Notes: generated by a model not told the origin, from the sequence alone. Positions 5,435 through 57,695 are shown, numbered from the stretch's first letter. The stretch is DNA of 57,695 nucleotides from an uncultured Oscillospiraceae bacterium (GCA_964560915.1 CAZLMO010000001.1:1-57695); one strand, 5' to 3'. Numbers and translations: made by a program.

Positions 5435-5914
5435 ATGAATCAAACGGTCCTTCAACATTTTGGAATTTTAGGGCAGCAATGGGGCATTCGAAGATTTCAA
5501 AATCCCGATGGCTCTTTGACGCCTAGGGGCCAGGCTCGTCTTGATAGGAAGGACAACAAGTGGGCCGCAACAAAGGGCGAAAAAATTAAACAGCGAGTTC
5601 AAAAAAGCGTATCAAAAGATATGAATGAGTTTATTCGTACTCAACTTGAAATATCCTATACTTCCAAAGGCAAACTTTCGTCAAGTACCATTCTTCAATA
5701 CAACAATAAGCTTGCGCAACTTATGAATTCACAAATTTCTGATATTTCAGCACCTTCGGGAAGAGTTTTACGATTTGTTGCTAAGCGGGGACAAATTGGA
5801 GTTCATACTGCGGTTGCGGATGCTGGATATGATATGAAACAACTTAGTCGCGGAGTCTTTAAAACTGGTAAAGTGGCGTATAAGACGGAAAATCTTATGA
5901 AAGGTGGTGATTAA
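5435..5914 (+). CDS. head-module protein with HFGxxGxxWG motif (paralog 3)
   Basis: RBS AAGGAGGG. Motif at the extreme N-terminus: QHFGILGQQWGIRRFQNPDGSLTPRG (nt 5453-5530). Confidence 0.65.
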   Translation: MNQTVLQHFGILGQQWGIRRFQNPDGSLTPRGQARLDRKDNKWAATKGEKIKQRVQKSVSKDMNEFIRTQLEISYTSKGKLSSSTILQYNNKLAQLMNSQISDISAPSGRVLRFVAKRGQIGVHTAVADAGYDMKQLSRGVFKTGKVAYKTENLMKGGD

Positions 5915-11486: not shown

Positions 11487-11858
11487 ATGATTAAAATGAC
11501 TCAACGTGGGTCCTTTAGGAATGCCGAACGGTTCTTCGATAATAGCAAAGATCTCAATCGTAGGCTTAGAACCGCGTTCGAGAGATATGGCTCTCAGGGA
11601 GTCGAAGCGCTTCGATCGGCAACCCCAACAAATAGTGGGCTAACTGCCAATAGCTGGTCCTATACCATTGAGGACTGGGGAATTGGTTTTAACAATTCGA
11701 ACATCCAAAACGGCTACTCTGTTGCACTATTAATTCAATATGGACACGCCACACGCAATGGCGGATATGTCGAAGGTATTGACTTTATTAATCCTGCCCT
11801 TCGTCCTATATTTGAAAAAATTGCAACAGAGTGCTGGAAGGAGGTTCGTAGTCTATGA
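11487..11858 (+). CDS. HK97 gp10-like tail/neck component
   Basis: VALLIQYGHATRNGGYVEGIDFINPAL matches the gp10-family signature (eyGh...g..v.g..f). Position directly before the tape measure gene is unusual. Confidence 0.5.
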   Translation: MIKMTQRGSFRNAERFFDNSKDLNRRLRTAFERYGSQGVEALRSATPTNSGLTANSWSYTIEDWGIGFNNSNIQNGYSVALLIQYGHATRNGGYVEGIDFINPALRPIFEKIATECWKEVRSL

Positions 11859-25128: not shown

Positions 25129-25137
25129 GAGCAACAT

Positions 25138-26685
25138 ATGAAGATATTTGGAGTAGAACTTAAATTTAAAGCTAGTGATATTTGGCATGCTGGAAATTTT
25201 GATCCTAATACAAAAGTTGACAAAAGTGTTAGCGAAATCCCATTCGTTATTGGTACACAGACCACTACAACGGCCTCTTGGACGGGTGTTGCAGATTCTA
25301 TAGATGGTTTATATAATGGGCTTACTATTAGATATTGGCTACCAAGAACGAGCGCATCGAATGTAACTTTAAACTTAACGTTAAAGGGCGGGGCAACGAC
25401 TGGTCCTATAAATTGTTATTACGGCGGCGTGTCCAGACTAACCACGCATTACCCAGCTGGTAGCTTTATTATGTTAACCTATATTGTTAATGGTCTTATT
25501 AATGGAACGGCGTACACTGGTTGGTGGGCCAAAGCCAATTATGTAGACGGCACCGAATCATATGCCATTAGATGGAATTCGACGCACAAGGTTGGGGCGG
25601 CAGTCTATTCCTATAAACTTTGTATGTTTGGAACCGACGGATTGTTATATCCACTAACATTAGAGACCGGAACTGGAACTACTAAAACAGTATCGGTTGT
25701 AGAATTTGCCATTGATTCGCCAATTCTATATTATGGAACCACTACCACAATAGCCGCTAACGGGACGAGTAGCTCCTATTGGTATAAAGGCGTTTCTATG
25801 GGAAGGTTGCATTACACGGCAAACATCGCTAGCGGATGGACTGCTTACAAGCCAATTTATTTGAAAGGAATAATAACCGCAGCGGGAAATTTTAAATTAG
25901 ACAACACCACTTTTACTAGTTGGTTAACACAAACCTTACCGACAAGTGACGATGGTTTTGTTTATATGTTAGTTGGGCATATGTATGATACAACGGTAAC
26001 GATGCGGTTATTAGAATCTAATCTACTACTTCAATACAAAAATGGAAAAATAAGACCCTATGTCTCAGTTTCTGCATTGGATGTTGGTTTAGGGAATGTG
26101 GACAACACAGCTGATGCAAATAAGGCTGTCCTAAGCGCTACAAAGCTAGCCACACCAAGAAAAATTAATGGGGTAAACTTCGATGGCACCGCAGCGATTA
26201 CTATAGCAGACAGCACAAAAGAACCCTCAATTACAGGTAGTACCGTTTCGACTTTTTGGAGTGGTCTTAAAACATTCAGAGACTTAGCAACAGATGTACG
26301 CGCTATAGCATTAACAGGACTGTCTGTCGCTACTAATTCTGCTATCGTCGCAACGGACACCATATTAGTGGCTCTTGGTAAATTGCAAGCACAAATAACA
26401 GGTCATACTGGTAGCACATCTAATCCTCATAGTGTTACGGCTACACAAGTTGGATTAGGGAATGTTACGAATGAATCTAAAGCGACAATGTTTACTAATG
26501 CTGCGTTGACAGGCACGCCAACCGCCCCGACACCAGCAACGGGAGATAATGATACTTCTATTGCCACTACTGCTTTTGTTAAAGCACAGGGATATATTAC
26601 ATCGTCATCAGCTGCTAAAATTACGGTAAGTGCTACCGCTCCAGCTTCTCCTATTGTTGGAGAATTCTGGTATCAAGTTTTATAA
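25138..26685 (+). CDS. tail fibre protein 2 (515 aa)
   Basis: Shares with fibre 1 the module EPSIT...FWSG.KT.R.LATDVRA..LTGLS.ATN..I.ATD.ILVALGKLQAQITGHTG.TSNPH...LGNV.N and LTGTPTAPTP..GDNDTSIATTAFV. Confidence 0.75.
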   Translation: MKIFGVELKFKASDIWHAGNFDPNTKVDKSVSEIPFVIGTQTTTTASWTGVADSIDGLYNGLTIRYWLPRTSASNVTLNLTLKGGATTGPINCYYGGVSRLTTHYPAGSFIMLTYIVNGLINGTAYTGWWAKANYVDGTESYAIRWNSTHKVGAAVYSYKLCMFGTDGLLYPLTLETGTGTTKTVSVVEFAIDSPILYYGTTTTIAANGTSSSYWYKGVSMGRLHYTANIASGWTAYKPIYLKGIITAAGNFKLDNTTFTSWLTQTLPTSDDGFVYMLVGHMYDTTVTMRLLESNLLLQYKNGKIRPYVSVSALDVGLGNVDNTADANKAVLSATKLATPRKINGVNFDGTAAITIADSTKEPSITGSTVSTFWSGLKTFRDLATDVRAIALTGLSVATNSAIVATDTILVALGKLQAQITGHTGSTSNPHSVTATQVGLGNVTNESKATMFTNAALTGTPTAPTPATGDNDTSIATTAFVKAQGYITSSSAAKITVSATAPASPIVGEFWYQVL

Positions 26686-29804: not shown

Positions 29805-30307
29805 ACACAGAGACAATGAATGTTCTGATTGTGTCGGTTCTTATTCCATTTTTAGTAGCCTTCGTTGCACTCTTCCAGCAATTTGCCGCTTCTAAGTCAG
29901 CCGAACTAAAGGTTAAAATGCATAACGACGAGATTGCTAAATATGTTGATATTGCAGAAGATGCAGTGATCACCGCCGTTGGTGCAGTAAGTCAGGTATT
30001 GGTAGACTCACTTAAAGATCTGGCAGAAAATGGTCAACTAACAGAAGAACAAAAAGAATTAGCTTTCACAGAAGCTAAACACCGCGCATTACTTATTATG
30101 GGAATTGCAGCCAAAGCCGCGGTGACAGAGCTCTATGGTAGCTTTGATGATTGGATTAATAATAAGATTGACTATTATGTTGGGTTGAATAAAACCGCCA
30201 AAGCAGCAGGGGTTGTTCTTTTACGACCAAGTCAAATGTCGCGAGGTATTCTACCTAATACCTTTGTGCTCGGGGCTCCGGACGCAAACATTCATCTTAT
30301 TAAATGA
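29801..30307 (+). CDS. holin (LL-H-like, superfamily 6-type)
   Basis: ATG at 29801 lies 7 nt after AAGGAGGG; the track start at 29738 is inside the previous gene. N-terminal TM helix NVLIVSVLIPFLVAFVALF, then a helical tail (DAVITAVGAVSQ...EEQKELAF) typical of LL-H holins. Confidence 0.55.
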   Translation: MNTETMNVLIVSVLIPFLVAFVALFQQFAASKSAELKVKMHNDEIAKYVDIAEDAVITAVGAVSQVLVDSLKDLAENGQLTEEQKELAFTEAKHRALLIMGIAAKAAVTELYGSFDDWINNKIDYYVGLNKTAKAAGVVLLRPSQMSRGILPNTFVLGAPDANIHLIK

Positions 30308-30317
30308 TATTTGAAGG

Positions 30318-30354
30318 CCCCTTGCAGAAAATACAAGGGGTCTTTTTTTTTTTT
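30318..30354 (+). terminator. rho-independent terminator ending the late/lysis operon
   Basis: Stem CCCCTTG / CAAGGGG followed by a T-rich tail (TCT12). Confidence 0.85.
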
Positions 30355-30380
30355 CATTAAAAACATACTCTATAATGAAA
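30354..30380 (+). promoter_or_regulatory. phage promoter-like motif copy 1 (variant)
   Basis: TCATTAAAAACATACTC-TATAAT-GAAA. Matches the family consensus except the first base. Confidence 0.5.
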
Positions 30381-30403
30381 TAATATTTGAAAGGATGTTT
30401 GAG

Positions 30404-30538
30404 ATGGAATTTAATATAGCAATGATAGTTTGGTTGTTTGGTACCTTTATAGGTTCGGCAATTATAGCTGCAGGAGTTGTAAAATTCTGTACAAGAAACG
30501 ACGATAAAGAAGATGATTTCGAAGAAGAAGCTAACTAA
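30404..30538 (+). CDS. small membrane protein (44 aa)
   Basis: GAAAGGA RBS. TM helix IAMIVWLFGTFIGSAIIAAGVV with an acidic tail. The stop lies in the terminator loop. Confidence 0.55.
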   Translation: MEFNIAMIVWLFGTFIGSAIIAAGVVKFCTRNDDKEDDFEEEAN

Positions 30539-30550
30539 GCTTCTTTCTTT
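30525..30550 (+). terminator. intrinsic terminator
   Basis: Stem AAGAAGCT / AGCTTCTT, loop AACTA containing the TAA stop, T-rich tail. Confidence 0.65.
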
Positions 30551-30577
30551 GCAATAAAAACACGGCATATAATGAAA
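30551..30577 (+). promoter_or_regulatory. phage promoter-like motif copy 2
   Basis: GCAATAAAAACACGGCA-TATAAT-GAAA. Confidence 0.6.
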
Positions 30578-30660
30578 AGGAATAAGTATCCTGAGACGAT
30601 TTGAATAAGTGCGCAACTTATTGGCAGATCTGTGGAACTTATTCTTTTCTTTGTTTTTCT
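30578..30660 (+). ncRNA. candidate small RNA / attenuator (no ORF)
   Basis: Lies downstream of motif copy 2 with no RBS-led ORF before the next promoter. GAATAAGT occurs at 30580 and 30603; ACTTATT(C) occurs at 30616 and 30637. These allow nested or mutually exclusive hairpins. The outer stem is followed by TTTTCTTTGTTTTTC. Confidence 0.4.
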
Positions 30661-30764
30661 CATATTTTTAAGCGTTTTCTCTGAAAAAGTGACCCTCGAG
30701 GATGCCCTACAAACGATTTTTATTTGAAACGAATACTATTGTATAGGCCCTATTTCTAACAAAT

Positions 30765-30791
30765 GCAACTTAAACATGTTCTATAATGAAA
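30765..30791 (+). promoter_or_regulatory. phage promoter-like motif copy 3
   Basis: GCAACTTAAACATGTTC-TATAAT-GAAA. Confidence 0.6.
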
Positions 30792-30816
30792 GAATAATTC
30801 GAAAGTGGTGGATTAG

Positions 30817-30915
30817 ATGGGATTAGTATTAAGCATAGTTGTGTATACATTTATGATGGGAGTACTGGTGATATTAGGAAGCCTCGAAAAAGGTTCATAT
30901 CAAGGGAAGCACTAA
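30817..30915 (+). CDS. small membrane protein (32 aa)
   Basis: Not in the ORF track (<60 aa). GTGGTGGA RBS-like. Sequence MGLVLSIVVYTFMMGVLVILGSLEKGSYQGKH. Shares its GKH-stop-terminator end with 30998-31150. Confidence 0.45.
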   Translation: MGLVLSIVVYTFMMGVLVILGSLEKGSYQGKH

Positions 30916-30927
30916 GCTTCTCTTTTT
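30904..30927 (+). terminator. intrinsic terminator
   Basis: Stem GGGAAGC / GCTTCTC, loop ACTAA containing the stop, T5. The 25 nt at 30903-30927 are identical to 31138-31162. Confidence 0.65.
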
Positions 30928-30947
30928 GCGTTATATTTCTTTCCTTT

Positions 30948-30974
30948 GCAATTAAAACATGGCCTATAATGAAA
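30948..30974 (+). promoter_or_regulatory. phage promoter-like motif copy 4
   Basis: GCAATTAAAACATGGCC-TATAAT-GAAA. Confidence 0.6.
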
Positions 30975-30997
30975 GAATAATTAAAGGAGAGATTTAA

Positions 30998-31150
30998 ATG
31001 ACAATGGATATGCAAATTTTAAATGCTGAACTACAAAAATTATCAATGCAAACCGCGAAGGTTTATTTGGTGTTTATGGTAGCCATGGCAGTAGTACTTG
31101 TAATCCGTACATTAAATGAGAAAGGTTATTTTTATAGAGGGAAGCACTAA
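30998..31150 (+). CDS. small membrane protein (50 aa)
   Basis: Not in the ORF track. RBS AAAGGAGAG. TM helix VYLVFMVAMAVVLVI. Ends in GKH-stop inside the terminator loop. Confidence 0.5.
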   Translation: MTMDMQILNAELQKLSMQTAKVYLVFMVAMAVVLVIRTLNEKGYFYRGKH

Positions 31151-31162
31151 GCTTCTCTTTTT
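31139..31162 (+). terminator. intrinsic terminator (duplicate of 30904-30927)
   Basis: Same GGGAAGC-ACTAA-GCTTCTC-TTTTT sequence. Confidence 0.65.
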
Positions 31163-31175
31163 CTATCGATCGATC

Positions 31176-31202
31176 GCAACAATTACACGGCACATAATGA
31201 AT
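31176..31202 (+). promoter_or_regulatory. phage promoter-like motif copy 5
   Basis: GCAACAATTACACGGCA-CATAAT-GAAT. Confidence 0.5.
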
Positions 31203-31268
31203 AGGGGGCATGGAATAATATGGCCTCTTAAATTTTTCAAAAGGAAGGTGTTAATACTATGCAAGACC

Positions 31269-31343
31269 GCGAGCCTATTTGGGATGAGATTGAGGCTGAT
31301 GTTAATGCTGTTGCGAAAAACAAGGGTATGTAACTGAGACACA
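31269..31343 (+). CDS. possible 24-aa leader peptide
   Basis: AAGGAAGG RBS 8 nt upstream. Sequence MQDREPIWDEIEADVNAVAKNKGM. Very short, so speculative. Confidence 0.2.
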
Positions 31344-31373
31344 AATTTCCAAAAAACGTAGGAGGACAAACGA

Positions 31374-32168
31374 ATGGACTTTAGTTCAGTGCAGCGAGGC
31401 GTAAAAAACCTCGGGGGAGTAATTTCTAAAAACAGTCCACATATTTTAACAGGGTTAGGATGCGCAGGAGTATTTACAACTGCCATTTTAACAGGCCGTG
31501 CAACTTTAAAAGCGCATACCATTTTAGAGCGAGAAGAGGAATATAGAAAAGAGCAGAATAAAGACTCTTATTCAGAACCTCTTCCCCCAATGGAAGTTGT
31601 GCAATTAACATGGAAGACCTTTGTTCCCCCAGTACTTATGGGATTAACTTCTATTGCATGTATCGTAGGGGCCAACACAATCAGTGCAAATCGCAATGCG
31701 GCTATTGCAGCGTTATATTCTTTAAGCGAGACTGCGTTTCGCGAATATAAGGACAAGGTTGTAGAAGAAGTTGGTAAAACAAAAGAACGAGCAATTCGAG
31801 ACAGCATTTCACAAGATCATATTAATGCGCGTCCGGTGAACACAAGCACCGTTATTGTCACTGGTCAGGGGGATGTACTGTGCCATGATGCGATGTCAAA
31901 AAGATATTTTAGATCCAGTCCGGAAAAAATCCGTCAGGTGGTGGCAGATTTAGACGATTTGCTTCGATTGGAGTCCTGGATACCACTTAATGAATTTTAT
32001 TATCGATTACATATGGATACATGCGATCTTGGTGCAAATTGTGGTTTTAATCCTTATAAGGGGAATGGACGAGTTGAAATTGATTATAATAGCAGCCTCA
32101 CTCCAGAGGGCATTCCTTGCCTTGAAGTTAGTGCGAAAACATATCCTAATCCAAATTGGATACCATAA
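31374..32168 (+). CDS. membrane-anchored protein, paralog A of 41177-42121
   Basis: RBS TAGGAGGA. Shares with the 41177 product P.IL.G.G..GV..T..L...ATLKA..IL.E and N.A..AAY.L.E.AF..Y...V..E.G. Resembles an uncharacterised phage family (possibly DUF6353-type; unverified). Confidence 0.6.
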   Translation: MDFSSVQRGVKNLGGVISKNSPHILTGLGCAGVFTTAILTGRATLKAHTILEREEEYRKEQNKDSYSEPLPPMEVVQLTWKTFVPPVLMGLTSIACIVGANTISANRNAAIAALYSLSETAFREYKDKVVEEVGKTKERAIRDSISQDHINARPVNTSTVIVTGQGDVLCHDAMSKRYFRSSPEKIRQVVADLDDLLRLESWIPLNEFYYRLHMDTCDLGANCGFNPYKGNGRVEIDYNSSLTPEGIPCLEVSAKTYPNPNWIP

Positions 32169-32171
32169 AAC

Positions 32172-32198
32172 GCACATAAAACTTGCCCCATAATGGAA
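32172..32198 (+). promoter_or_regulatory. phage promoter-like motif copy 6
   Basis: GCACATAAAACTTGCCC-CATAAT-GGAA. The 29 nt at 32167-32195 are identical to 35256-35284. Confidence 0.55.
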
Positions 32199-32215
32199 AG
32201 AAAGGAGATGGGAAA

Positions 32216-34609: not shown

Positions 34610-34614
34610 GGCTC

Positions 34615-34641
34615 GCATATAAAACCTCCCGTATAATGGGA
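34615..34641 (+). promoter_or_regulatory. phage promoter-like motif copy 7
   Basis: GCATATAAAACCTCCCG-TATAAT-GGGA. Confidence 0.55.
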
Positions 34642-34670
34642 GTTATAATAAGAAAGGATGGAGAAAGATT

Positions 34671-34974: not shown

Positions 34975-35268
34975 GTGGAAGTTTTAGTAATGAGTATAAT
35001 TGCATTTTTGACACTGATAAGCTTCTCGGTATTGAATGGTATGAAGAAAGTACAAAAAATGCATCGACATCTAGAGGAAGAAGTCATTCCTCCACCAGCA
35101 CCTCCGATGCCGCCAACCCCAGAAGAGATAGCAGGGTGGGTTTTTCCAAATAAAGACGAAGCTATCAGCATGTGCACTTATATTTTGTGTACAGATTTAT
35201 ACGAGGTGGTTCGAAATAGGAAAAATGGTAAACTTACTAAAGGTTGGGTACTTAAAAAACGCACATAA
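34975..35268 (+). CDS. small membrane protein with Pro-rich linker (97 aa)
   Basis: GTG after AAAGGAA, or ATG at 34990. TM helix IIAFLTLISFSVL, then PPPAPPMPPTPEE. Confidence 0.5.
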   Translation: MEVLVMSIIAFLTLISFSVLNGMKKVQKMHRHLEEEVIPPPAPPMPPTPEEIAGWVFPNKDEAISMCTYILCTDLYEVVRNRKNGKLTKGWVLKKRT

Positions 35269-35287
35269 AACTTGCCCCATAATGAAA
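35261..35287 (+). promoter_or_regulatory. phage promoter-like motif copy 8
   Basis: GCACATAAAACTTGCCC-CATAAT-GAAA. Overlaps the stop of the upstream CDS and drives the tRNA-like element. Confidence 0.55.
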
Positions 35288-35375
35288 GAATATGCTAAAT
35301 GTATGGAGTAATGGTAACTCGCCGATTCGTCGGAGACGTGGTTCGAAGCCACTAACCATATTCTTTCATTTTTAA
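35288..35375 (+). ncRNA. tRNA-like structured RNA (non-canonical, no anticodon loop)
   Basis: The closing stem is GAATATG (35288-35294) with CATATTC (35357-35363), extendable to 14 bp. The D-arm-like element is GAGT-AATGGTA-ACTC (35306-35320). The UUCG-capped mini helix is CCGA-TTCG-TCGG (35322-35333). The T-arm-like element is GTGG-TTCGAAG-CCAC (35338-35352). A T5 tail follows, and the region has no ORF. Confidence 0.4.
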
Positions 35376-38313: not shown

Positions 38314-38730
38314 ATGCGCATAACAAAAACCGTAACGGCAGTGACCCCTAGATATGCCGATAACGGCTCGGCGGGTATGGATTTATATGTAGATACTGCT
38401 GAATCATATACCCTTCAACCAGGCGAAACCTATTATTTGCCAACAGGAATTCGAGTAGAAATACCGCGAAATTTCTTTGGGGTTATTTATCCGCAATCTA
38501 ATCTCTTTAGAAAAGGGTTGGTACTAGCAAATGCGGTGACAGTCCTTAATGCTACAGATCGCGGAGAGATAATGTTGGCGGTAAAGAATGTGTTCTCTGA
38601 TATAGTTCGGATCAACGGCCAATGGGGACTTAGATCTCCATTGGCGCAATTGGTTATTCAACCCTATCGTTTTGAAAAAATTGAATTGGATGATATTCTT
38701 GAACAAGAGTCGCTAAGCATTAAGATTTGA
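38314..38730 (+). CDS. dut: dUTP diphosphatase
   Basis: GSAGMDLY, GVIYPQSNL and TDRGEI match trimeric dUTPase motifs. Confidence 0.8.
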   Translation: MRITKTVTAVTPRYADNGSAGMDLYVDTAESYTLQPGETYYLPTGIRVEIPRNFFGVIYPQSNLFRKGLVLANAVTVLNATDRGEIMLAVKNVFSDIVRINGQWGLRSPLAQLVIQPYRFEKIELDDILEQESLSIKI

Positions 38731-38731
38731 T

Positions 38732-38758
38732 GCAATAAAAACATGACCTTTAATGAAA
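38732..38758 (+). promoter_or_regulatory. phage promoter-like motif copy 9
   Basis: GCAATAAAAACATGACC-TTTAAT-GAAA. Confidence 0.5.
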
Positions 38759-38771
38759 GGAAGTGTTTTAA

Positions 38772-39013: not shown

Positions 39014-39038
39014 GAAAGGGCATTGCCTTTTCTTTTTC
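39014..39038 (+). terminator. intrinsic terminator
   Basis: Stem GAAAGGG / CCTTTTC (one G-U pair) followed by a T-rich tail (TTTTTC). Confidence 0.6.
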
Positions 39039-39065
39039 GCAATTAAATCCTATGTTATAATAGGA
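39039..39065 (+). promoter_or_regulatory. phage promoter-like motif copy 10
   Basis: GCAATTAAATCCTATGT-TATAAT-AGGA. Confidence 0.5.
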
Positions 39066-39092
39066 ACTAATAAAATTTAGGAGGAACCGGAA

Positions 39093-39316: not shown

Positions 39317-39353
39317 TGCACAGGTTGACGGAACATACAATCATTAAGCCCTC

Positions 39354-39380
39354 GCGGAATTATCTCCTCCTATAATAGAA
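39354..39380 (+). promoter_or_regulatory. phage promoter-like motif copy 11 (divergent upstream half)
   Basis: GCGGAATTATCTCCTCC-TATAAT-AGAA. Confidence 0.45.
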
Positions 39381-39402
39381 GTAAAATAAAAGGAGGAATA
39401 GT

Positions 39403-39546
39403 ATGATTACACTACTGATTATGGTGGTTCTTTTGAGTGTAATATGCGGATTGTTGTGTAAATTTGTATCGGCCCTTGTGGGTGTGATATTTATAATGGC
39501 AGCGATGGCATTTACACTTCGAATGGCCAAAGAGATCTTAAGGTGA
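39403..39546 (+). CDS. small membrane protein (47 aa)
   Basis: Not in the ORF track. RBS AAAGGAGGAA. Sequence MITLLIMVVLLSVICGLLCKFVSALVGVIFIMAAMAFTLRMAKEILR. Confidence 0.55.
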   Translation: MITLLIMVVLLSVICGLLCKFVSALVGVIFIMAAMAFTLRMAKEILR

Positions 39547-39567
39547 GAGCTACGGCTCTCCTTTTTT
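39545..39567 (+). terminator. intrinsic terminator
   Basis: Stem GAGAGC / GCTCTC with a TACG loop, then T6. Confidence 0.75.
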
Positions 39568-39573
39568 CGCCTC

Positions 39574-39600
39574 GCAGAATCTTCTTACCCTATAATGGAA
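39574..39600 (+). promoter_or_regulatory. phage promoter-like motif copy 12
   Basis: GCAGAATCTTCTTACCC-TATAAT-GGAA. Confidence 0.55.
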
Positions 39601-39626
39601 TGAATATTTGAAAGGAAGGTATTATT

Positions 39627-39817: not shown

Positions 39818-39840
39818 GAGAGCTACGGCTCTCCTTTTTT
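39818..39840 (+). terminator. intrinsic terminator
   Basis: GAGAGC-TACG-GCTCTC followed by T6. Confidence 0.75.
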
Positions 39841-39846
39841 CGCCTC

Positions 39847-39873
39847 GCAGAATCTTCTTACCCTATAATGGAA
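39847..39873 (+). promoter_or_regulatory. phage promoter-like motif copy 13
   Basis: GCAGAATCTTCTTACCC-TATAAT-GGAA. Confidence 0.55.
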
Positions 39874-39897
39874 GAAGATTTATAAGGAGGAAGCAAT

Positions 39898-40113: not shown

Positions 40114-40148
40114 AAAGAGGGCAATACTTACTCCCTCTTTCTTTATTC
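40114..40148 (+). terminator. intrinsic terminator
   Basis: Stem AAAGAGGG / CCCTCTTT with an 11-nt loop and a T-rich tail. Confidence 0.6.
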
Positions 40149-40175
40149 GCAGAAAATACTAATTATATAATGAAG
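40149..40175 (+). promoter_or_regulatory. phage promoter-like motif copy 14
   Basis: GCAGAAAATACTAATTA-TATAAT-GAAG. Confidence 0.5.
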
Positions 40176-40195
40176 CGAAGTGAAAGGAGGAATAA

Positions 40196-40401: not shown

Positions 40402-40411
40402 TTTATCGATC

Positions 40412-40438
40412 GCAACATTTACAACTCATATAATGAAA
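40412..40438 (+). promoter_or_regulatory. phage promoter-like motif copy 15
   Basis: GCAACATTTACAACTCA-TATAAT-GAAA. Confidence 0.55.
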
Positions 40439-40462
40439 CTATATGAAAGGAAGGAAATAGAA

Positions 40463-40819: not shown

Positions 40820-40851
40820 AGACTTATTGGAAACAATGAGTCTTCTTTTTG
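40820..40851 (+). terminator. intrinsic terminator
   Basis: Stem AGACTTATTG / CAATGAGTCT (one G-U pair), GAAA loop, T-rich tail. Confidence 0.65.
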
Positions 40852-40854
40852 TCG

Positions 40855-40881
40855 TAATGAAATCCTGCTCTATAATGAGAA
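40855..40881 (+). promoter_or_regulatory. phage promoter-like motif copy 16 (variant)
   Basis: GTAATGAAATCCTGCTC-TATAAT-GAGA. Confidence 0.45.
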
Positions 40882-40909
40882 CTGATATTTAGAGAAGGAG
40901 GAAACGACA

Positions 40910-46220: not shown

Positions 46221-47017
46221 AAAAGGTATTTTTTGGAACTGTAGTTTTTGGACTTGGTGCCGTTGCTGGATATTTCACTGCTAAAAAGATGCTTAGAACC
46301 CAATATCAAAACGATGTTGCAGAAGTTCAAGCATTCTATTATCAAAAACTTGAGGAATTGGGCGTTATGGAAGAAGGTTTTGATCCTCTAGACGATAACG
46401 AAGAAGAGGAAGAGGTTGAGGATGATCCTGCTTCGGAGCTTATTACGGCATACCGGGCCGACGGACGGAAGCTTCATTACGATTATACCAAACCGCCGCT
46501 TGGAGATTTAAGACGGAAAATAGTTAGTGGTAGTGTTTTGGTTGAACCAAATGGTGAAGAATTATTGGGCGTTATTGATGATGACGAGGAAGACGAGTAT
46601 ATAGACGCCGAGTACGAAGCCGAACTTGAACAATCTGCCGAAGACTTCATGCGTCGACAAACAGAGAATATGCAGAAAGGCGAACCATATTTGATCGATG
46701 CTGACGAGTATCATCAAGGACCTAAAGAATATGAACGCCAAGCACTGTATTATTATGTCGAAGATCGTGTGCTTTGTGAAGATAATGATGAAGAAGTGGA
46801 CGATGAAGAAGCATGTGTGGGCCTGGACTACGAGGACAAACTTACAATGCAGACAACCTGTTGGGTTCGAAACGATACGTTGAAGATGCTTTATGAAATT
46901 CATCGTATTGATGATTCATTTAAGCGAGCGGTATTAGGAATTGTCGAGACGCCACGGGAACGCGAATTCCGAATTCAAGGACGACGGAAAAAAGGAATGG
47001 ATAATCATAAAAAGTAA
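46217..47017 (+). CDS. acidic membrane-anchored protein (266 aa)
   Basis: N-terminal TM helix VFFGTVVFGLGAVAGYF followed by long acidic tracts. Confidence 0.5.
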   Translation: MKKVFFGTVVFGLGAVAGYFTAKKMLRTQYQNDVAEVQAFYYQKLEELGVMEEGFDPLDDNEEEEEVEDDPASELITAYRADGRKLHYDYTKPPLGDLRRKIVSGSVLVEPNGEELLGVIDDDEEDEYIDAEYEAELEQSAEDFMRRQTENMQKGEPYLIDADEYHQGPKEYERQALYYYVEDRVLCEDNDEEVDDEEACVGLDYEDKLTMQTTCWVRNDTLKMLYEIHRIDDSFKRAVLGIVETPREREFRIQGRRKKGMDNHKK

Positions 47018-47018
47018 T

Positions 47019-47045
47019 GCAATAAAAACACCTCCTATAATGAGA
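47019..47045 (+). promoter_or_regulatory. phage promoter-like motif copy 17
   Basis: GCAATAAAAACACCTCC-TATAAT-GAGA. Confidence 0.6.
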
Positions 47046-47077
47046 ACGATAGTTCAAAACAATAGGAGGAATTTAAA

Positions 47078-52380: not shown

Positions 52381-53583
52381 TTGAACATACAACTTACTGA
52401 ATATCAGGTTGAGGCCGTTGAGAAAATGCATAATGGTTGTATTCTGCGAGGCGGTACGGGTTCTGGGAAAACTCTTACCTCTTTAGTTCATGTATTTGAA
52501 AAAATTTTGAAAGGCAGTTCCCCTTTATATCCGGGGCACACATATAAGAAAGCCGCTGTTAACCTTTCCATATATGTTATTACTACTCCAAAAAAACGGG
52601 ACAGTCTTGATTGGACCAGAGAAGCGGCTCTTGTTCCTATAGGTCTTACGGTTGTTGATTCGTGGAATAATATTAAAAAATATGAGCATCTTAAAAACGC
52701 CGTATTTATTTTTGATGAGTCAAAAGTTATTGGGTATGGAGCATGGACGCAGTCGTTTCTTAAAATTACGAGACATAATGCGTGGATGCTTTTATCTGCA
52801 ACGCCAGGAGACACTTGGTTAGAATATATGCCAGTATTCATTGCCAATGGATTTTATAAAAACAAAACCGAATTTGAGCGAGAGCATGTGATGTGGAGTC
52901 GCTTCTCTAAATATCCAAAGGTTGAACGATATCTTGGTATATCTCGTTTAATTCGTCAACGAGATCTTATTACGGTGGATATGGGAGACCAACGAGCAAC
53001 AACGCAACACCATAAGGACGTGCTTTGTGATTTTAACGCAATTCATTATGAAATACTAGCAAAGGATAGATGGAACCTCTTTGAAAATAAACCAATTCGA
53101 GACATATCGCAGCTATGCTTTGCGCTTCGTAAGGTTGTAAATTCTGACGAATCAAGACTTGCCGCCCTCTCTACCATTTATGCTAGACATAAGAAAGTAA
53201 TCGTTTTCTATAACTTTAACTATGAATTAGAACTACTTCGCAGTTGGTGCGATTCTAATAAAATTGTGTATTCTGAATGGAATGGCCGTAATCATGACGA
53301 CTTACCCACAAGTCCACTTTGGGTATATCTTTGCCAATACACGGCCGCAAAAGAAGCATGGAATTGTATTGAAACTGATTGTATTGTATTTTATTCGCAA
53401 ACCTACTCATACAAGGCCCTTGTGCAGTCAGCGGGAAGAATTGATAGGATGAACACCACCTTCTTACATTTATACTATTATCATCTAATATCCTCTGCAC
53501 CAATTGAATTAGGCATACAAAAAGCTTTATATCATAAAGAAAACTTTAATGAAGGGCGTTGGCTTATGGCCGAAAGCTCTTAA
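52381..53583 (+). CDS. SF2 (SNF2/DEAD-like) helicase
   Basis: TTG start after AAAGGAGGTGAG. Walker A GGTGSGKT, Walker B-like IFDES, SAT-like motif LSATPG, and a C-terminal QSAGRIDR motif VI. Confidence 0.7.
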   Translation: MNIQLTEYQVEAVEKMHNGCILRGGTGSGKTLTSLVHVFEKILKGSSPLYPGHTYKKAAVNLSIYVITTPKKRDSLDWTREAALVPIGLTVVDSWNNIKKYEHLKNAVFIFDESKVIGYGAWTQSFLKITRHNAWMLLSATPGDTWLEYMPVFIANGFYKNKTEFEREHVMWSRFSKYPKVERYLGISRLIRQRDLITVDMGDQRATTQHHKDVLCDFNAIHYEILAKDRWNLFENKPIRDISQLCFALRKVVNSDESRLAALSTIYARHKKVIVFYNFNYELELLRSWCDSNKIVYSEWNGRNHDDLPTSPLWVYLCQYTAAKEAWNCIETDCIVFYSQTYSYKALVQSAGRIDRMNTTFLHLYYYHLISSAPIELGIQKALYHKENFNEGRWLMAESS

Positions 53584-53585
53584 TC

Positions 53586-53612
53586 GCAACAAAAACATAG
53601 CCTATAATGAGA
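53586..53612 (+). promoter_or_regulatory. phage promoter-like motif copy 18
   Basis: GCAACAAAAACATAGCC-TATAAT-GAGA. Confidence 0.6.
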
Positions 53613-53676
53613 GAGTAAGGTGTCGCTAAACCAGCGCATCTTCTTTTCTTATATTTTTTGAGAAAGGAGCGTGGCT

Positions 53677-53979
53677 ATGGCTAAAAAAGAGTCTGAATTT
53701 AAGGGTAAACTCTATAAAGAAATCCGGGAACGATTCCCAGGAGCTGAAGTTCTTCCAAATGATCCTAACTATCTTCAAGGGATTCCCGACGCAACGGTCT
53801 TTTTTCCAAACGGGAGATATGTTATGCTTGAGAGCAAAAAAGCTGCGACCTCAAAAAAACAACCAAACCAAGAATACTATGTATACGAATCTCCTTTAAG
53901 TAAAAACGCAATGTTTGCATGCCCCGACAATCGCAAAGAAGTTCTTACTGAACTAGAAAGGAGATATCATTTGCAGTGA
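53677..53979 (+). CDS. PD-(D/E)xK nuclease (VRR-NUC / resolvase-like)
   Basis: ATG lies 7-8 nt after AAAGGAG. GIPDATVFF...VMLESKK fits the D...ExK motif. Confidence 0.45.
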   Translation: MAKKESEFKGKLYKEIRERFPGAEVLPNDPNYLQGIPDATVFFPNGRYVMLESKKAATSKKQPNQEYYVYESPLSKNAMFACPDNRKEVLTELERRYHLQ

Positions 53980-54524
53980 AATTTAATTATCATTCAAATC
54001 TTGAAGGCACTCATGCTTTTCTTTCTCCTAGTCGATATTCGTGGGTCAATTATGATGAGCAAAAACTAGATTCCGTCTATGCTAATTGGCGCGCTTCGCA
54101 GCTAGGCACCGAGCTCCATGAGCTTGCCTCTAAACTGATCAATCTTGGTGTTAAATTACCAAAAACCAATAAAACATTAAACATGTATGTCAATGATGGA
54201 ATTGGTTTTCGAATGTCGACCGAGGTATGTTTGTTTTATTCGATTAATGCCTTTGGTACAGCCGATGCAATATCTTTTAAAAATAATACCCTTCGTATTC
54301 ACGATTTAAAAAATGGTCGAACCCCGGCATCTATTAAACAATTGGAGATCTATACCGCTTTGTTCTGTCTCGAATACAGCTTTAATCCGCGCGATATTGA
54401 TATTGAACTTCGCCTTTATCAATTGGACGAGGTGCTTGTTTCAAACCCCATTCCTGAAGATATTTTATTTATTATGGAACGAATTATGGTGTTTGACAAA
54501 AGGATAAACGACATTAAAGAATAG
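53976..54524 (+). CDS. PD-(D/E)xK family nuclease (recombination exonuclease-like)
   Basis: GTG start overlapping the upstream stop. GTADAISF...IHDLKNG fits the D...D-x-K motif. Confidence 0.4.
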   Translation: MKFNYHSNLEGTHAFLSPSRYSWVNYDEQKLDSVYANWRASQLGTELHELASKLINLGVKLPKTNKTLNMYVNDGIGFRMSTEVCLFYSINAFGTADAISFKNNTLRIHDLKNGRTPASIKQLEIYTALFCLEYSFNPRDIDIELRLYQLDEVLVSNPIPEDILFIMERIMVFDKRINDIKE

Positions 54525-54540
54525 GGGTGTAAAACAACCA

Positions 54541-57411
54541 ATGGCATATTTAAAGCATTTCGGCACCCCTCGACATAGTGGTCGATATCCTTGGGGTTCC
54601 GGAAAAGATCCTCAAAGATCTAAATCGTTTGCCACTCGTGTATCTGAGTTAAAAAAAGAAGGCCTATCCGAAGCCGAAATTGCTAAAGGTTTTGGATTTA
54701 AAACAACAACGGAGCTTCGTGCAAAAATACATACTGAATCAGAATCACGATATGCAGCGCAAGCGGCCATGGCCTCTCGATTAAGGGCTAAAGGAAATTC
54801 CGATGTCGCAATTGCCAGAAGAATGAACGTTAGTCCTAACACCGTTAAGAATTTACTTCTTCCTGAAACAAAAGAGCGGCATAAGGCAACCGAAGCCACT
54901 ATGGAAATGTTACAAGCGGCAGCGGATAAAAAGGGTATGGTTGACATTGGTACAGCAGCTAATTTAAGAATTGGGGTAACAAAAACAAAATTAGATGTTT
55001 CTGTTTTACAACTGCAAGAAAAAGGATATGTTGCTGTTGCCATTCAAACCCCTCAACTTGGAACCTCTAATAAGACAACCGTTCGTTCTTTACTTTCACC
55101 CGCAACCATGGAGAAAGCTAGAGCCGAATACGTTATAAAAGATCCAGATAAATGGCGAAGATTAACTCCACAAGAACAAGAAGCAAAAATTGCGTATTTA
55201 TATGCTTCTAAACATGCAGATGAAATTCGTCTAATTGACGACTGGACCTCTGATGGTGGACTTACATATAAACAAGTAAAGCCGCCAGTCTCGATCGATT
55301 CAAAACGTATTATGGTTCGTTTTAGTGATGATAACCCTTCTGGTGCAAGTATGGACGGAACTATACAAGTAAGAAGAGGCGTTCCAGACTTAGCCCTTCC
55401 ACCCGACAAACACTATGGTCAAGCACGTGTTGCTGTTGACGGAACACATTATATGAAGGGTATGGTTATTTATGCATATGAAGACATGCCGCCTGGCATT
55501 GATGTTATTTATAACACAAATAAAGACTCTTCTGTAGGGAAACTTGGTGCTCTGAAAAAAATGAACACGGTGTTGGATACCGAAGATGGTGGCGCAATAT
55601 TCATTGATAAAGAGGGTAAACAAAAAATTAATGAATTTGGCGCTTCAATTCGTCAAACTACATATATCGATAAGAAGGGAAAAGAACAACTATCTGCTCT
55701 AAACATCGTTGGCTTTGTTGGAAAAACAGATTCTGGTGTAGAAGGCGGATGGGAAACCTGGAGTAAGACCCTTTCTAGCCAATTTTTATCGAAACAAAAT
55801 TCCGAACTTGCTAAACAACAACTCAATTTGGCCTATTTGGATCAAAAAGACACATTCGATTCGTATGCCCAAATTACACAACCCGCTGTTAAGCAGCGAT
55901 TATTAGATGCATTTGCTGACGACTGTGATTCTAAAGCCGTTCATTTAAAGGCTGCTGCTTTACCTCGACAAACATCAAATGTTATTATTCCAATCATGTC
56001 ATTAAAAAAGAATGAATGCTATTCTCCTAACTATAGAGATGGAGAACAGCTGGTTCTAATTCGTTATCCGCATGCAGGAACCTTTGAAATTCCCGTTGTT
56101 ACAAATAACTTACGAAATAAAGAAGCCAAGGCCGTTTTAGGTGGTGGATTAGATGGTCTTGGAATTACACCGCATGCTGCGGAGCAATTATCTGGTGCGG
56201 ACTTTGACGGCGATACAGTCATTGCGATTCCATATAACCCAAAAACGATTGCGATCTCTCCTATAAACAAAAGCCTTTCTGATTTTACCGAAACCTATCG
56301 AAAACAATATGCTAAAGTTCCAGGCATGGCCGTTATTACAACAAAACAAAAGGGTCAAGAAATGGGTAGAGTATCAAATCTTATTACGGATATGACAATT
56401 AAGGGCGCAACAGTTGATAAGATTGTTAGAGCAGTTAAGCATTCAATGGTGGTTATAGATGCCGAGAAGCACGAACTGAACTATACCCAGTCCTATATTG
56501 ATAATGGGATAGCTGAATTAAAGGTTGAATATCAAGGAGGCACGCTTACAAATCCAAGAGGTGCTTCAACATTAGTTAGTCGAGCTTCTTCAGAACAACG
56601 CGTTGACAAAAGAAAAGCCCTTACTAAAGAAGAGGCTCTTGCAACCGGTCGCACTCTTATTAGAAAAAATGCCTATTCCGTCGATGTCAATACCGGCGAG
56701 AAAGTCTACATCCCTACTGGTGATGGTTATACAAATAAAAAAGGGAAGTTTATTAAGTCGCAAATCAAATCAACAAAGATGGCCGAAGTTTCAGATGCTC
56801 GAAAACTTATGAGTTCTCCTGCCACTCCGATTGAAATCATCTATGCCGATTATGCCAACTCAATGAAAGCGCTTGGCAATAAAGCTCGAAAAGAGTCAGC
56901 TAACATTAAAATGACTGCTTATGACCCATCTGCTAAAAAAGCATATGCTCCCGAAGTTGCCGCACTTAACAAAAAATTAAAGGTCGCTTTAGCTAATGCC
57001 CCACTTGAGCGACAGGTGCATCTTATCGGTAATAAAAAACTTCGAACAACCATAGATGCGAACAACAACATGGATGCAAGTCAAATTAAGAAACTAAAAG
57101 GTCAAATCTTGGCGCAAACACGAGAACTGGTTGGAGCAAAGAAAACACCAATTCAGATTACTCAATCGGAATGGCATGCGATTGAATCTGGTGCAATCAG
57201 TAATGCTCTATTAAAACAAATCTTAGATAATACAAATTTGGATGTTGTACAATCATATGCAACTCCGCGAACTAGAGTTCTCATGTCTCCAAGTAAGGTT
57301 GCCCGTGCTAAGATATACCGTGCTCAAGGAAGAGAGATGTCCGAAATCGCAGAAGCGCTCGGCGTTTCGGTTTCCACTTTATCTCAATCACTGAAAGGAG
57401 AAGGGTCATGA
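54541..57411 (+). CDS. single-polypeptide two-barrel RNA polymerase (YonO/RdRP-like) with HTH-like termini
   Basis: The beta-like barrel signature THYMKGMVIYAYEDMPPGIDVIYNTN spans nt 55444-55521. The beta-prime-like signature LVLIRYPHAGTFEIPVV...SGADFDGDTVIAIPY spans nt 56050-56235, with DFDGD at 56200-56214. HTH-like segments are NSDVAIARRMNVSPNTVKNLL (aa 86-106) and REMSEIAEALGVSVSTLSQSL (aa ~931-951). The N-terminal motif KHFGTPRHSGRYPWGSG is related to the head-module paralogs. Confidence 0.65.
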   Translation: MAYLKHFGTPRHSGRYPWGSGKDPQRSKSFATRVSELKKEGLSEAEIAKGFGFKTTTELRAKIHTESESRYAAQAAMASRLRAKGNSDVAIARRMNVSPNTVKNLLLPETKERHKATEATMEMLQAAADKKGMVDIGTAANLRIGVTKTKLDVSVLQLQEKGYVAVAIQTPQLGTSNKTTVRSLLSPATMEKARAEYVIKDPDKWRRLTPQEQEAKIAYLYASKHADEIRLIDDWTSDGGLTYKQVKPPVSIDSKRIMVRFSDDNPSGASMDGTIQVRRGVPDLALPPDKHYGQARVAVDGTHYMKGMVIYAYEDMPPGIDVIYNTNKDSSVGKLGALKKMNTVLDTEDGGAIFIDKEGKQKINEFGASIRQTTYIDKKGKEQLSALNIVGFVGKTDSGVEGGWETWSKTLSSQFLSKQNSELAKQQLNLAYLDQKDTFDSYAQITQPAVKQRLLDAFADDCDSKAVHLKAAALPRQTSNVIIPIMSLKKNECYSPNYRDGEQLVLIRYPHAGTFEIPVVTNNLRNKEAKAVLGGGLDGLGITPHAAEQLSGADFDGDTVIAIPYNPKTIAISPINKSLSDFTETYRKQYAKVPGMAVITTKQKGQEMGRVSNLITDMTIKGATVDKIVRAVKHSMVVIDAEKHELNYTQSYIDNGIAELKVEYQGGTLTNPRGASTLVSRASSEQRVDKRKALTKEEALATGRTLIRKNAYSVDVNTGEKVYIPTGDGYTNKKGKFIKSQIKSTKMAEVSDARKLMSSPATPIEIIYADYANSMKALGNKARKESANIKMTAYDPSAKKAYAPEVAALNKKLKVALANAPLERQVHLIGNKKLRTTIDANNNMDASQIKKLKGQILAQTRELVGAKKTPIQITQSEWHAIESGAISNALLKQILDNTNLDVVQSYATPRTRVLMSPSKVARAKIYRAQGREMSEIAEALGVSVSTLSQSLKGEGS

Positions 57412-57650
57412 AAGATGACATAATGTTAACAACAATAGATAATCCATTTGACCCCTTTACTCAGTGGGACGATTGGAAGCGATACGACGAAGACATGAAG
57501 TATTTTACATGTAATTACCTTGCAAGAATTGCGAAGACATCTGATGATTTACCAGCTGTTGACAATGAAATAGCGATTGAGAATGCAATTAATGAAATTG
57601 TAAACCTCAATATCTTAGGAATTTACAGAAAAGTATATAAAAAAATATAA
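57408..57650 (+). CDS. hypothetical small protein (80 aa)
   Basis: Start overlaps the RNAP stop (ATGA). Acidic, conserved-looking phage protein (IDNPFDPFTQWDDW). Confidence 0.5.
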   Translation: MKDDIMLTTIDNPFDPFTQWDDWKRYDEDMKYFTCNYLARIAKTSDDLPAVDNEIAIENAINEIVNLNILGIYRKVYKKI

Positions 57651-57695
57651 TATCATACCGGGGGGGGTCTATTTATCACACCCCCTCTTCTACAT
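57651..57695. other. genome-end region with G8 / C5 tracts (candidate cos/packaging region together with 1-121)
   Basis: A G8 run (57660-57667) and CCCCC lie 13 nt apart. Across the junction there is GAGGGTCC and the palindrome GCCCCGGGGGC followed by T6 (31-47). G/C tracts stand out in an otherwise AT-rich non-coding stretch directly upstream of the terS-like gene. Confidence 0.35.
57687..57695. repeat. terminal direct repeat CTTCTACAT (copy 2)
   Basis: Identical to nt 1-9. Confidence 0.8.

Follow-up and report, generated by a model that had tools for sequence, protein, structure and literature searches.

RNA polymerases (RNAPs) that unite both catalytic barrels of the multisubunit enzymes in one chain are found in phages and in eukaryotes, and it is against these that we here compare a predicted single-chain polymerase encoded close to the right end of a 57,695-nucleotide stretch of DNA (GCA_964560915.1 CAZLMO010000001.1:1-57695, hereafter the window), an apparently complete genome of an uncultured phage (~57.7 kb, 40% GC). 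Judged by analogy, the best functional precedent is YonO of the Bacillus prophage SPbeta, a DNA-dependent RNAP that transcribes late genes (Forrest et al. 2017, PMC5467207), and the same study left open how single-chain two-barrel RNAPs find their promoters and whether YonO is able to do so alone. Two-barrel RNAPs reading phage-specific promoters without a sigma factor are furthermore represented by gp66 of the crAss-like phage phi14:2 and by gp96 and the non-virion gp64 of Thermus phage P23-45, and in the P23-45 study promoters were assigned partly from the co-occurrence of a motif with the polymerase gene among relatives, the same logic that is used here. On the eukaryotic side QDE-1 of Neurospora and RDR2 of plants are silencing polymerases that are RNA-dependent or single-stranded DNA (ssDNA)-dependent.

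By its sequence the window protein is a full, divergent member of an already described family, PHROG 4291, the gene for which is the signature of a lineage of siphophages with hosts among the Actinobacteria and Firmicutes. Koert et al. 2021 (bioRxiv 10.1101/842583) reported it as such for a group made up of the actinobacteriophage supercluster AM, AU, AW, BI, CC, DJ and EL together with Lactococcus 1706-like phages and Faecalibacterium phage Oengus, and described the product as a putative RNA polymerase with a DxDGD motif, helix-turn-helix (HTH) domains at both ends and an HHpred match of 95.68% to PF05183; the words promoter, intergenic and transcription are absent from that report, and virion association is unmentioned in it. 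With the phages of this group the window polymerase shares the PHROG 4291 assignment, the N- and C-terminal HTH domains and the DxDGD loop, at 33-45% full-length identity to the cultured phages, whereas it differs from the actinophage proteins by an insertion of about 30 amino acids (aa) at ~aa 190-220 and another at ~aa 345-365. An earlier note on this DNA had regarded both the HTH-bearing ends and the position of the gene as unusual, but the former are family-wide and had already been described by Koert et al. (bioRxiv 10.1101/842583), and the right-end placement is likewise conserved across the family.

YonO and the window protein are both single chains of ~100 kDa, homologous to multisubunit RNAPs and grouped with homologues of RNA-dependent RNA polymerases (RdRPs), and yonO lies directly upstream of the late/packaging/structural operon of SPbeta, a position analogous to that of the window gene. 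They do however belong to different sequence families (PHROG 8308 for YonO), and the promoter-like motif described below is absent from the yonN-yonK gap. To our knowledge no HTH domains are reported for YonO, and neither HTH ends nor promoter-type motifs are known to us for QDE-1 and RDR2. The earlier note had placed the protein in the company of YonO, the crAss-like virion RNAP and QDE-1, and of this the fold and the barrel order stand, as in QDE-1, whereas membership of the YonO sequence family does not: hhalign of a 64-sequence family profile against YonO gives a probability of 1%, the profile being shallow (Neff, the effective number of sequences, 1.9) and remote homology possible.

Fold, catalytic residues and DNA-binding modules

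The 956-aa open reading frame (ORF) and the signatures quoted for it in the earlier note were all found where they had been placed, the beta-type signature THYMKGMVIYAYEDMPPGIDVIYNTN at aa 302-327 and the beta-prime-type signature as LVLIRYPHAGTFEIPVV at aa 504-520 and ITPHAAEQLSGADFDGDTVIAIPY at aa 542-565. Among 64 homologues of 54-100% identity K306, G307, the run S551-G552-A553-D554-F555-D556-G557-D558 and many neighbouring residues are invariant, and the same catalytic residues are still invariant when four phage homologues of 37-49% identity are considered. R296, K306, G307, K328 and K339 are invariant in the beta-type barrel region, and SGADFDGD, K306 and dozens of further positions in the core do not vary among homologues from different host phyla, whatever the identity between 100% and 33-37%. 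This invariance indicates that the motif residues are selected and are not chance look-alikes.

An AlphaFold2 model built from the 64 homologues (mean predicted local distance difference test score, pLDDT, 76.8; core mostly 80-90) contains two beta-rich domains, aa 257-390 and aa 478-565, with the DFDGD loop of the second placed between a helix at aa 544-549 and a strand at aa 559-564. In a Foldseek search of the PDB the best matches to this model are QDE-1 (7y7r_A, E 3.4e-6; 2j7n_A, E 5.2e-6) and maize RDR2 (7w82, E 5.7e-5), all with probability 1.00, followed by many RNAP largest subunits of beta-prime/Rpb1/A' type (E ~7e-3). The alignments to QDE-1 and RDR2 extend over 830-900 columns at ~10-11% sequence identity with low TM scores of 0.24-0.27, and with that many aligned columns both barrels are covered. 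Among the viral structures of BFVD the top matches are phage proteins named RdRP, and giant-virus RNAP subunits and RlpA-like double-psi barrels are found as well. The search by model and fold comparison that the earlier note had proposed thus returned significant matches to two-barrel polymerases, and its central claim of a single chain with a beta-like barrel followed by a beta-prime-like barrel is borne out by the model, the Foldseek matches, the PHROG 4291 assignment and the invariant residues. We conclude that the protein very probably has, as modelled, a single-chain polymerase fold with two double-psi beta-barrels of the QDE-1/YonO structural class.

Sequence alone does not connect the protein to solved RNAPs, since a protein sequence search against PDB chains returned nothing and the 64-sequence profile found only HTH- or helix-hairpin-helix (HhH)-type matches in the PDB (Topo V repeats, a designed repeat protein and NarL) and no polymerase. 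The Pfam RdRP family PF05183 is touched below threshold (13.1 bits, E 0.038, cut-off 23.8; aa 546-650 against profile 427-507), and five of seven family members examined give matches of 13.0-22.1 bits, all below the cut-off, at the catalytic-loop positions of that profile (426 to ~510); these include the homologues of Arcadia, RosaAsantewaa, ReqiPepy6 and 1706, the last of which scores best (ORF75, 22.1 bits). QDE-1 and RDR2 have the same barrel order as the window polymerase and a DxDGD loop that aligns with this same part of the profile; the window protein is best described as related to PF05183, not as a formal member of it. The match to PHROG 4291, a family named "RNA-dependent RNA polymerase", has 1019.9 bits and runs from aa 217 to 953 against profile positions 197-907 of 909.

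The only Pfam families that exceed their cut-offs in this protein are HTH families. Of the three HTH segments proposed in the earlier note, those at aa 80-106 and aa 925-951 pass Pfam cut-offs, whereas the one at aa 36-60 is weaker, with helices in the model and no Pfam match when scanned alone. The equivalent region of homologues does match CENP-B_N, Sigma70_r3 and Sigma70_r4, and the Topo V repeat match of the profile extends over aa 29-106. At the C-terminus Sigma70_r4_2 reaches 27.0 bits against a cut-off of 25.7 at aa 927-949, a score that is summed over two stretches and is approached by many generic HTH families.

The family is large, with at least 7,986 proteins in a metagenome-scale search, and precomputed matches to the same Pfam HTH families exist for almost every one of the 120 homologues listed. 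Among the matches listed the closest relatives are metagenomic proteins of at most 79% identity, and homologues occur in 250 sequenced phages, all below 60% identity to the window copy, from Arthrobacter, Gordonia, Streptomyces, Lactococcus, Curtobacterium, Microbacterium, Rhodococcus, Faecalibacterium and gut 'Siphovirus' contigs. Most records, among them most SEA-PHAGES records, are named 'helix-turn-helix DNA-binding domain protein' and a few 'RNA-dependent RNA polymerase'.

A promoter-like motif that accompanies the polymerase gene

Repeat finding in the window brought out a motif of ~30 nucleotides (nt) between 30.3 and 53.6 kb, in short form TCGC-N6-wwACA-N5-TATAAT-Gr, with the consensus yCGCAAnwAAAACAnnnCC-TATAAT-GAAAG over 18 copies. 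The position weight matrix (PWM), which was built from the window copies and then extended iteratively with its own finds, counts these 18 copies on the plus strand of the window against one on the minus strand. Seventeen of them lie between 30.3 and 47.0 kb ahead of early and middle genes, one is found at 53583 ahead of the polymerase operon, and there is none in the structural half. A Shine-Dalgarno (SD) sequence and a start codon follow within ~25-40 nt 3' of the motif, and a hairpin plus T-run often precedes it. The idea that the ACA block could be the -35 element of a -10 element further downstream was rejected, as the sequence further downstream shows no conservation and the SD and ATG are already reached within 25-40 nt.

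Five of the copies are crowded into ~850 nt (30351-31204) at the late/early boundary, where they overlap two putative, mechanically called minus-strand ORFs (30251-30616 and 31163-31522). Between 38.7 and 40.9 kb a series of units, each of terminator, promoter and ribosome-binding site, stands ahead of very small genes, and as part of this series a 56-nt cassette of terminator hairpin, T-run and motif is perfectly duplicated at 39545-39600 and 39818-39873, 273 nt apart.

The motif is also found, on the gene strand only, in Arcadia (Arthrobacter; 8 copies, polymerase 44% identical), RosaAsantewaa (Streptomyces; 7 copies, 59% GC), Secretariat (Gordonia; 11 copies), P078 (Lactococcus; 10 copies, with the TCGC block absent) and 1706 (Lactococcus; 7 copies at >=13 bits, with a TATAGT variant). 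The copies of all five phages are concentrated where the early region begins, and in the window and the three actinophages the polymerase operon is itself directly preceded by a further copy. Seed-based repeat finding in Arcadia and P078 had shown no obvious multi-copy family, since the copies are too degenerate for it, and the view that the motif is private to the window was given up when the PWM scan found it in both. The best-conserved blocks TCGC, ACA and TATAAT are spaced ~10 bp apart, roughly one helical turn, and conservation between host phyla, at 31-59% GC, extends to ~20 positions beyond the hexamer.

Across 80 related viral loci (891 kb, 31-58% GC) there are 90 motif hits on the gene strand against 6 on the other, and a copy is present between -1500 and -500 of the polymerase start in 47 of 69 testable loci, nearly always at 0.9-1.05 kb. 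Conversely, when 2.9 M viral contigs were searched with the operon-type motif (20 specified bases), 108 exact matches were testable, of which 83 were followed by the polymerase N-terminus at a median distance of 938 nt, and several of the remainder lie on contigs known to carry the polymerase gene. The motif and the polymerase are thus associated in both directions. No motif hits were obtained in sk1, phiC31 or a ReqiDocB7 fragment, which represent unrelated phages with hosts of the same genera. A search with the literal sequence and the phage cluster names found no published report of the motif, and both the motif and the virion lead discussed below appear to be unreported in the literature searched.

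Which enzyme reads the motif, and whether it travels with the virion

Overall, the sequence evidence leads us to favour, with moderate confidence, a sigma-independent phage transcriptase that would read its own promoters and could possibly be delivered by the virion. That the enzyme is a DNA-dependent transcriptase is likely, although we infer the type of template, and we lean towards the motif as its cognate promoter. The fused HTH modules, two N-terminal and one C-terminal, would dock the polymerase on the ~30-bp lineage-specific promoter, and initiation, without a sigma factor, would take place immediately 3' of the TATAAT block; any allotment of promoter blocks to particular parts of the protein is something that we infer. 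The polymerase would in this way drive the early and middle genes as well as its own endonuclease-exonuclease-polymerase operon, and on circular or concatemeric DNA it could read through the joined ends into the packaging and structural genes, which are free of the motif. Indeed there is no terminator between the operon and the end of the genome, so that transcription could run on into these genes. The suggestion of built-in promoter recognition in the earlier note gains support from the lineage-wide occurrence of the motif, which is the 27-nt motif mentioned there.

The main rival is a division of labour of the YonO type, in which host sigma-A RNAP reads the TATAAT motifs of the early and middle genes and of the polymerase operon, while the phage enzyme serves only the long late operon (packaging, structure and lysis) from another promoter and the upstream blocks are sites for a regulator, possibly for the HTH modules of the enzyme itself. 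Most copies do have a perfect TATAAT, reading by the host would simply explain the copy on the polymerase operon, the structural half has no copy, and YonO transcribes late genes that lie directly downstream of its own gene, the same arrangement as here. Intrinsic-terminator-like hairpins are moreover enriched in the early region (25 found between 30 and 42 kb against 8.7 expected). However, the upstream block is only 13 nt from TATAAT, a canonical -35 element is lacking (none at 16-18 nt) as is a TG extension, and a sigma-70 consensus scan of the window did not pick up the copies, which together argue that the motif is not a standard sigma-70 promoter. Furthermore, the early promoters annotated in the lactococcal phage sk1 follow the canonical form (TTGACA-17-TATAAT) whereas the early motifs of 1706 and P078 are not, and host promoters would not require the ~20 conserved positions outside the hexamer. 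The Streptomyces-phage copies are mostly TTAAAT or TTATAT and so have no A at position 2, a base of the -10 element that is essential to primary sigma factors. No separate late promoter motif was found either, and a distinction of early and late promoter classes by the bases after TATAAT (GAGACC versus AGAAGG) was rejected as inconsistent between genomes. We therefore regard this division of labour as unlikely.

Some observations nonetheless weigh against a phage transcriptase with promoters of its own. With a motif before its own operon the polymerase would face a bootstrapping problem, which only injection of the enzyme or weak firing of these promoters by the host polymerase would avoid, and the perfect TATAAT of most genomes means that host sigma-A holoenzyme could use the motif, at least in Actinobacteria, in which promoters with a -10 element alone are common. 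The hairpin-plus-T-run terminators before motif copies fit a host-type RNAP equally well, and a comparison of HTH sequences with promoter blocks in five genomes, including the loss of TCGC in P078, revealed no clear covariation. The PWM scores are partly circular because the matrix was extended with sites that it had found, but this circularity does not touch the strand bias, the position of the copies, the negative controls or the reverse search. A literature search found no biochemistry on any PHROG 4291 member.

A polymerase without a role in transcription, be it an RdRP or an enzyme that copies ssDNA in the manner of QDE-1 for replication primers or RNA:DNA hybrids, seems improbable. The closest solved folds are QDE-1 and RDR2 and not bacterial RNAP, the names in PHROG and RefSeq say RdRP, and the gene shares an operon with an endonuclease and an exonuclease at the end of a replication/recombination module, after the helicase, ssDNA-binding protein and primase-polymerase. 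The phage is however a double-stranded DNA (dsDNA) phage with a primase-polymerase of its own (1321 aa), three sequence-specific HTH modules of dsDNA type and a conserved motif at promoter positions fit transcription better, and YonO, of the same structural class and with the same 'RdRP' label, is a DNA-dependent RNAP. That the protein is an inactive HTH DNA-binding or virion structural protein with its barrel core as a dead scaffold is very improbable, since conservation of the catalytic site (SGADFDGD, K306 and core) to 33-37% identity would not be expected of it, even if most records carry the HTH name, that of 1706 reads 'structural protein' and only HTH families pass Pfam cut-offs.

Delivery of the transcriptase with the virion, which would solve the bootstrapping problem, is suggested by the N-terminal peptide and by the records of one homologue. 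The first 26 residues are predicted to be disordered (pLDDT <50) and follow the pattern HYGxxRxSGRYPWGSG, in which H6, G8, S13, G14, R15, Y16, P17, G19, S20 and G21 are invariant. The peptide of DUF7211 proteins has the form (D/E)x(Y/F)LxHYGVxGMKWGxR, and the prefix (D/E)x(Y/F)LxHYG(V/I/T) is common to both. In the window DUF7211 is found in the ORFs 3007-3648 and 3697-4389 and weakly in 5435-5914, all in the head module around the portal (peptide LxHFGVxGMKWGVRR), and in a six-frame translation of the window the pattern H[FYW]G...WG occurs only in these three head ORFs and at the polymerase N-terminus. The two kinds of peptide also co-occur in Arcadia and ReqiPepy6, in the latter of which eight consecutive head-module ORFs start with the peptide. 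The homologue in Lactococcus phage 1706, ORF75 (EU081845; homology E 1e-148), was labelled 'structural protein' by its depositors and was later named RdRP in RefSeq, the ReqiPepy6 record reads 'similar to 1706_gp75, structural protein', and 1706 ORF7 and ReqiPepy6 gp019 are DUF7211 proteins that are both annotated as structural. Comparison of the polymerase peptide with the DUF7211-type motif by hhalign gives a probability of 94% over the 10-column prefix, but this value is partly circular because both sets were chosen with a shared regular expression; a Pfam scan of the N-terminal peptide alone gave no match at all, DUF7211 included. No literature on DUF7211 was found.

Virion delivery is thus a tentative proposal from sequence, for which the odds are somewhat less than even, and we are slightly more reserved still about its full form, in which the peptide (LxHYGxxRxSGRYPWGSG) would be a variant of the DUF7211 peptide and, in common with that of a set of head-module proteins, a capsid-targeting signal, the packaged enzyme would be an early transcriptase whose three HTH modules engage the three blocks, and the early programme would be free of host sigma. 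Such an enzyme would be packaged in the virion and enter with the DNA. Delivery with the virion is known for gp66, gp96 and the vRNAP of phage N4, whereas in the present family it is only possible and depends on the record annotations of a single homologue. N4 vRNAP has a T7-like fold and not a two-barrel one. All of these, like gp64, are much larger than the window polymerase or, unlike it, fused to other virion proteins, and none of the four is among the top 50 Foldseek matches.

Genomic setting and implications

The long ORFs of the window are essentially all on the plus strand and the GC skew is positive along its whole length. The left end encodes packaging and head functions, namely an HNH endonuclease, a connector-like virion protein, a TerL-sized ORF, the portal and a protease-capsid fusion; the latter, a 616-aa ORF at 7145-8995, joins a prohead protease (Peptidase_S78, aa 7-132) to a major capsid domain (Phage_capsid, aa 350-602) and is likewise annotated in actinophage relatives. 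A 2589-aa ORF (11855-19624) occupies the tape-measure position, the tape measure proteins of relatives having ~1500-2000 aa, and is followed by the tail genes. Downstream of these, diverged long direct repeats (23250-24528 and 23991-26586; 130 nt at 95% identity, 212 nt at 72% and 84 nt at 76%) lie within and between ORFs of 744 and 515 aa, which suggests duplicated tail-fibre or receptor-binding modules. From ~30.3 kb many small genes precede the 1321-aa primase-polymerase, the orthologues of which in close relatives contain DUF5906, an ssDNA-binding protein and a helicase. The final block consists of the endonuclease, the exonuclease, the polymerase and an 80-aa ORF. A tRNA scan of the window and an Rfam scan of 53000-57695 both came back empty, and when the right 17.7 kb was compared with sequenced phages by megablast nothing matched. 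Positions of the features are collected in Table 1.

Table 1. Polymerase gene, its operon and the copies of the promoter-like motif in the window
Feature	Position	Strand	Evidence or remark
Polymerase ORF, 956 aa, ATG start	54541..57411 (stop included)	+	ORF; PHROG 4291 E=0; model and Foldseek match QDE-1/RDR2
N-terminal peptide, aa 3-27, YLKHFGTPRHSGRYPWGSGKDPQRS	54547..54621	+	invariant, predicted disordered; resembles DUF7211 motif
HTH-like segment 1, aa 30-60	54628..54720	+	weak support; model helices 30-39, 44-50, 56-83
HTH domain 2, aa 75-106	54763..54858	+	HTH_38 36.1 bits (cut-off 27), HTH_23 32.0 (24.6), HTH_7 29.7 (23.8)
Beta-subunit-like barrel region, ~aa 255-390	55303..55710	+	model strands 257-390; signature nt 55444-55521; invariant K306, G307
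Beta-prime-like barrel, ~aa 478-565	55972..56235	+	strands 478-564 flank loop; Pfam RdRP 427-507 aligns aa 546-650
DFDGD metal-binding loop, aa 554-558	56200..56214	+	motif position; SGADFDGD invariant in all homologues examined
C-terminal HTH, aa 917-952, sigma region 4-like	57289..57396	+	Sigma70_r4_2; helices 917-928, 933-940, 944-952
Endonuclease, 102 aa, first operon gene	53671..53979	+	phrog_93; syntenic with Arcadia gp94, RosaAsantewaa gp52 VRR-Nuc
Exonuclease, 182 aa, second operon gene	53976..54524	+	phrog_3953, E 1e-73
80-aa ORF, start overlaps polymerase stop codon	57408..57650	+	phrog_4303, E 4e-32; after polymerase gene in all relatives examined
Terminal 9 nt, CTTCTACAT	57687..57695	.	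same as nt 1-9; cos or circular junction
Motif copy ahead of polymerase operon, ATCGCAACAAAAACATAGCCTATAATGAGAGA	53583..53614	+	40.7 bits, best PWM score in window
Motif copy, weaker	30351..30382	+	26.1 bits
Motif copy	30548..30579	+	38.7 bits
Motif copy	30762..30793	+	36.2 bits
Motif copy	30945..30976	+	40.1 bits
Motif copy	31173..31204	+	32.1 bits
Motif copy	32169..32200	+	38.3 bits
Motif copy	34612..34643	+	28.9 bits
Motif copy	35258..35289	+	38.7 bits
Motif copy, TTTAAT variant	38729..38760	+	35.6 bits
Motif copy, weak	39036..39067	+	16.6 bits
Motif copy, weak	39351..39382	+	19.8 bits
Motif copy after terminator hairpin 39545-39560	39571..39602	+	27.3 bits
Motif copy after terminator hairpin 39818-39833	39844..39875	+	29.1 bits
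Motif copy	40146..40177	+	27.3 bits
Motif copy	40409..40440	+	30.7 bits
Motif copy	40851..40882	+	27.0 bits
Motif copy ahead of primase-polymerase block	47016..47047	+	35.5 bits

The right-end order of endonuclease, exonuclease, polymerase, small ORF and genome end is kept across the relatives examined. The 9-nt repeat CTTCTACAT is consistent with a cohesive end or a circular assembly junction, and ReqiPepy6, a relative, has an annotated 9-nt 3' cos overhang; with this sequence at both ends of the window, the polymerase operon comes to lie directly upstream of the packaging genes once the ends join. The polymerase gene had been called the last large gene before the packaging module, which agrees with the single 80-aa ORF that remains before the window end and with the order in a circularly permuted relative (L004), where the polymerase, a 78-aa ORF and three small ORFs lead to TerL and the portal with no terminator between.

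Some further features were noted around the operon. A near-consensus sigma-70-type promoter (TTTACA, 18 nt, TATAAT; 11 of 12 matches) lies inside the 80-aa ORF at its 3' end (57622-57651) and is directed towards the end of the genome and so towards packaging genes; it has a weaker equivalent in L004 (11816-11845), where its conservation may be an effect of the coding sequence. In a 78%-identical relative (L003, 9045-9090) the operon leader has an insertion of ~31 nt with GGTTCGAACCCGGGACC, resembling a tRNA T-arm, which is absent from the window. Upstream of the polymerase-operon motif of Arcadia (18690-18920) there is a 440-nt gap full of short GTGGCCAA or TTGGCCA-type repeats, with AAAAACGTGGCCAATTGGCCAAAA occurring twice, which could be an origin or an array of binding sites; the window has no such gap.

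With HTH modules of its own and a short, conserved candidate promoter that recurs across host phyla, the family offers a test case for how two-barrel RNAPs find promoters, and several of its members infect cultivable hosts of biosafety level 1 (BSL-1; Arthrobacter, Gordonia, Streptomyces and Lactococcus), while ~250 deposited phage genomes label the gene merely 'HTH DNA-binding protein'. If the enzyme reads the promoter alone, it would constitute a compact sigma-free system for transcription, of 107 kDa and without evolutionary relationship to T7 RNAP, with a bearing on RNAP evolution and a possible use in Gram-positive bacteria as an orthogonal tool for expression. If it is delivered by the virion as well, injected transcriptases in the style of N4 and crAss would exist in ordinary siphophages of Gram-positive bacteria and DUF7211 would gain a function. 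Packaging of the enzyme would furthermore make early transcription independent of the host, and this would help to explain a lineage that spans two phyla with a GC content far below that of its hosts.

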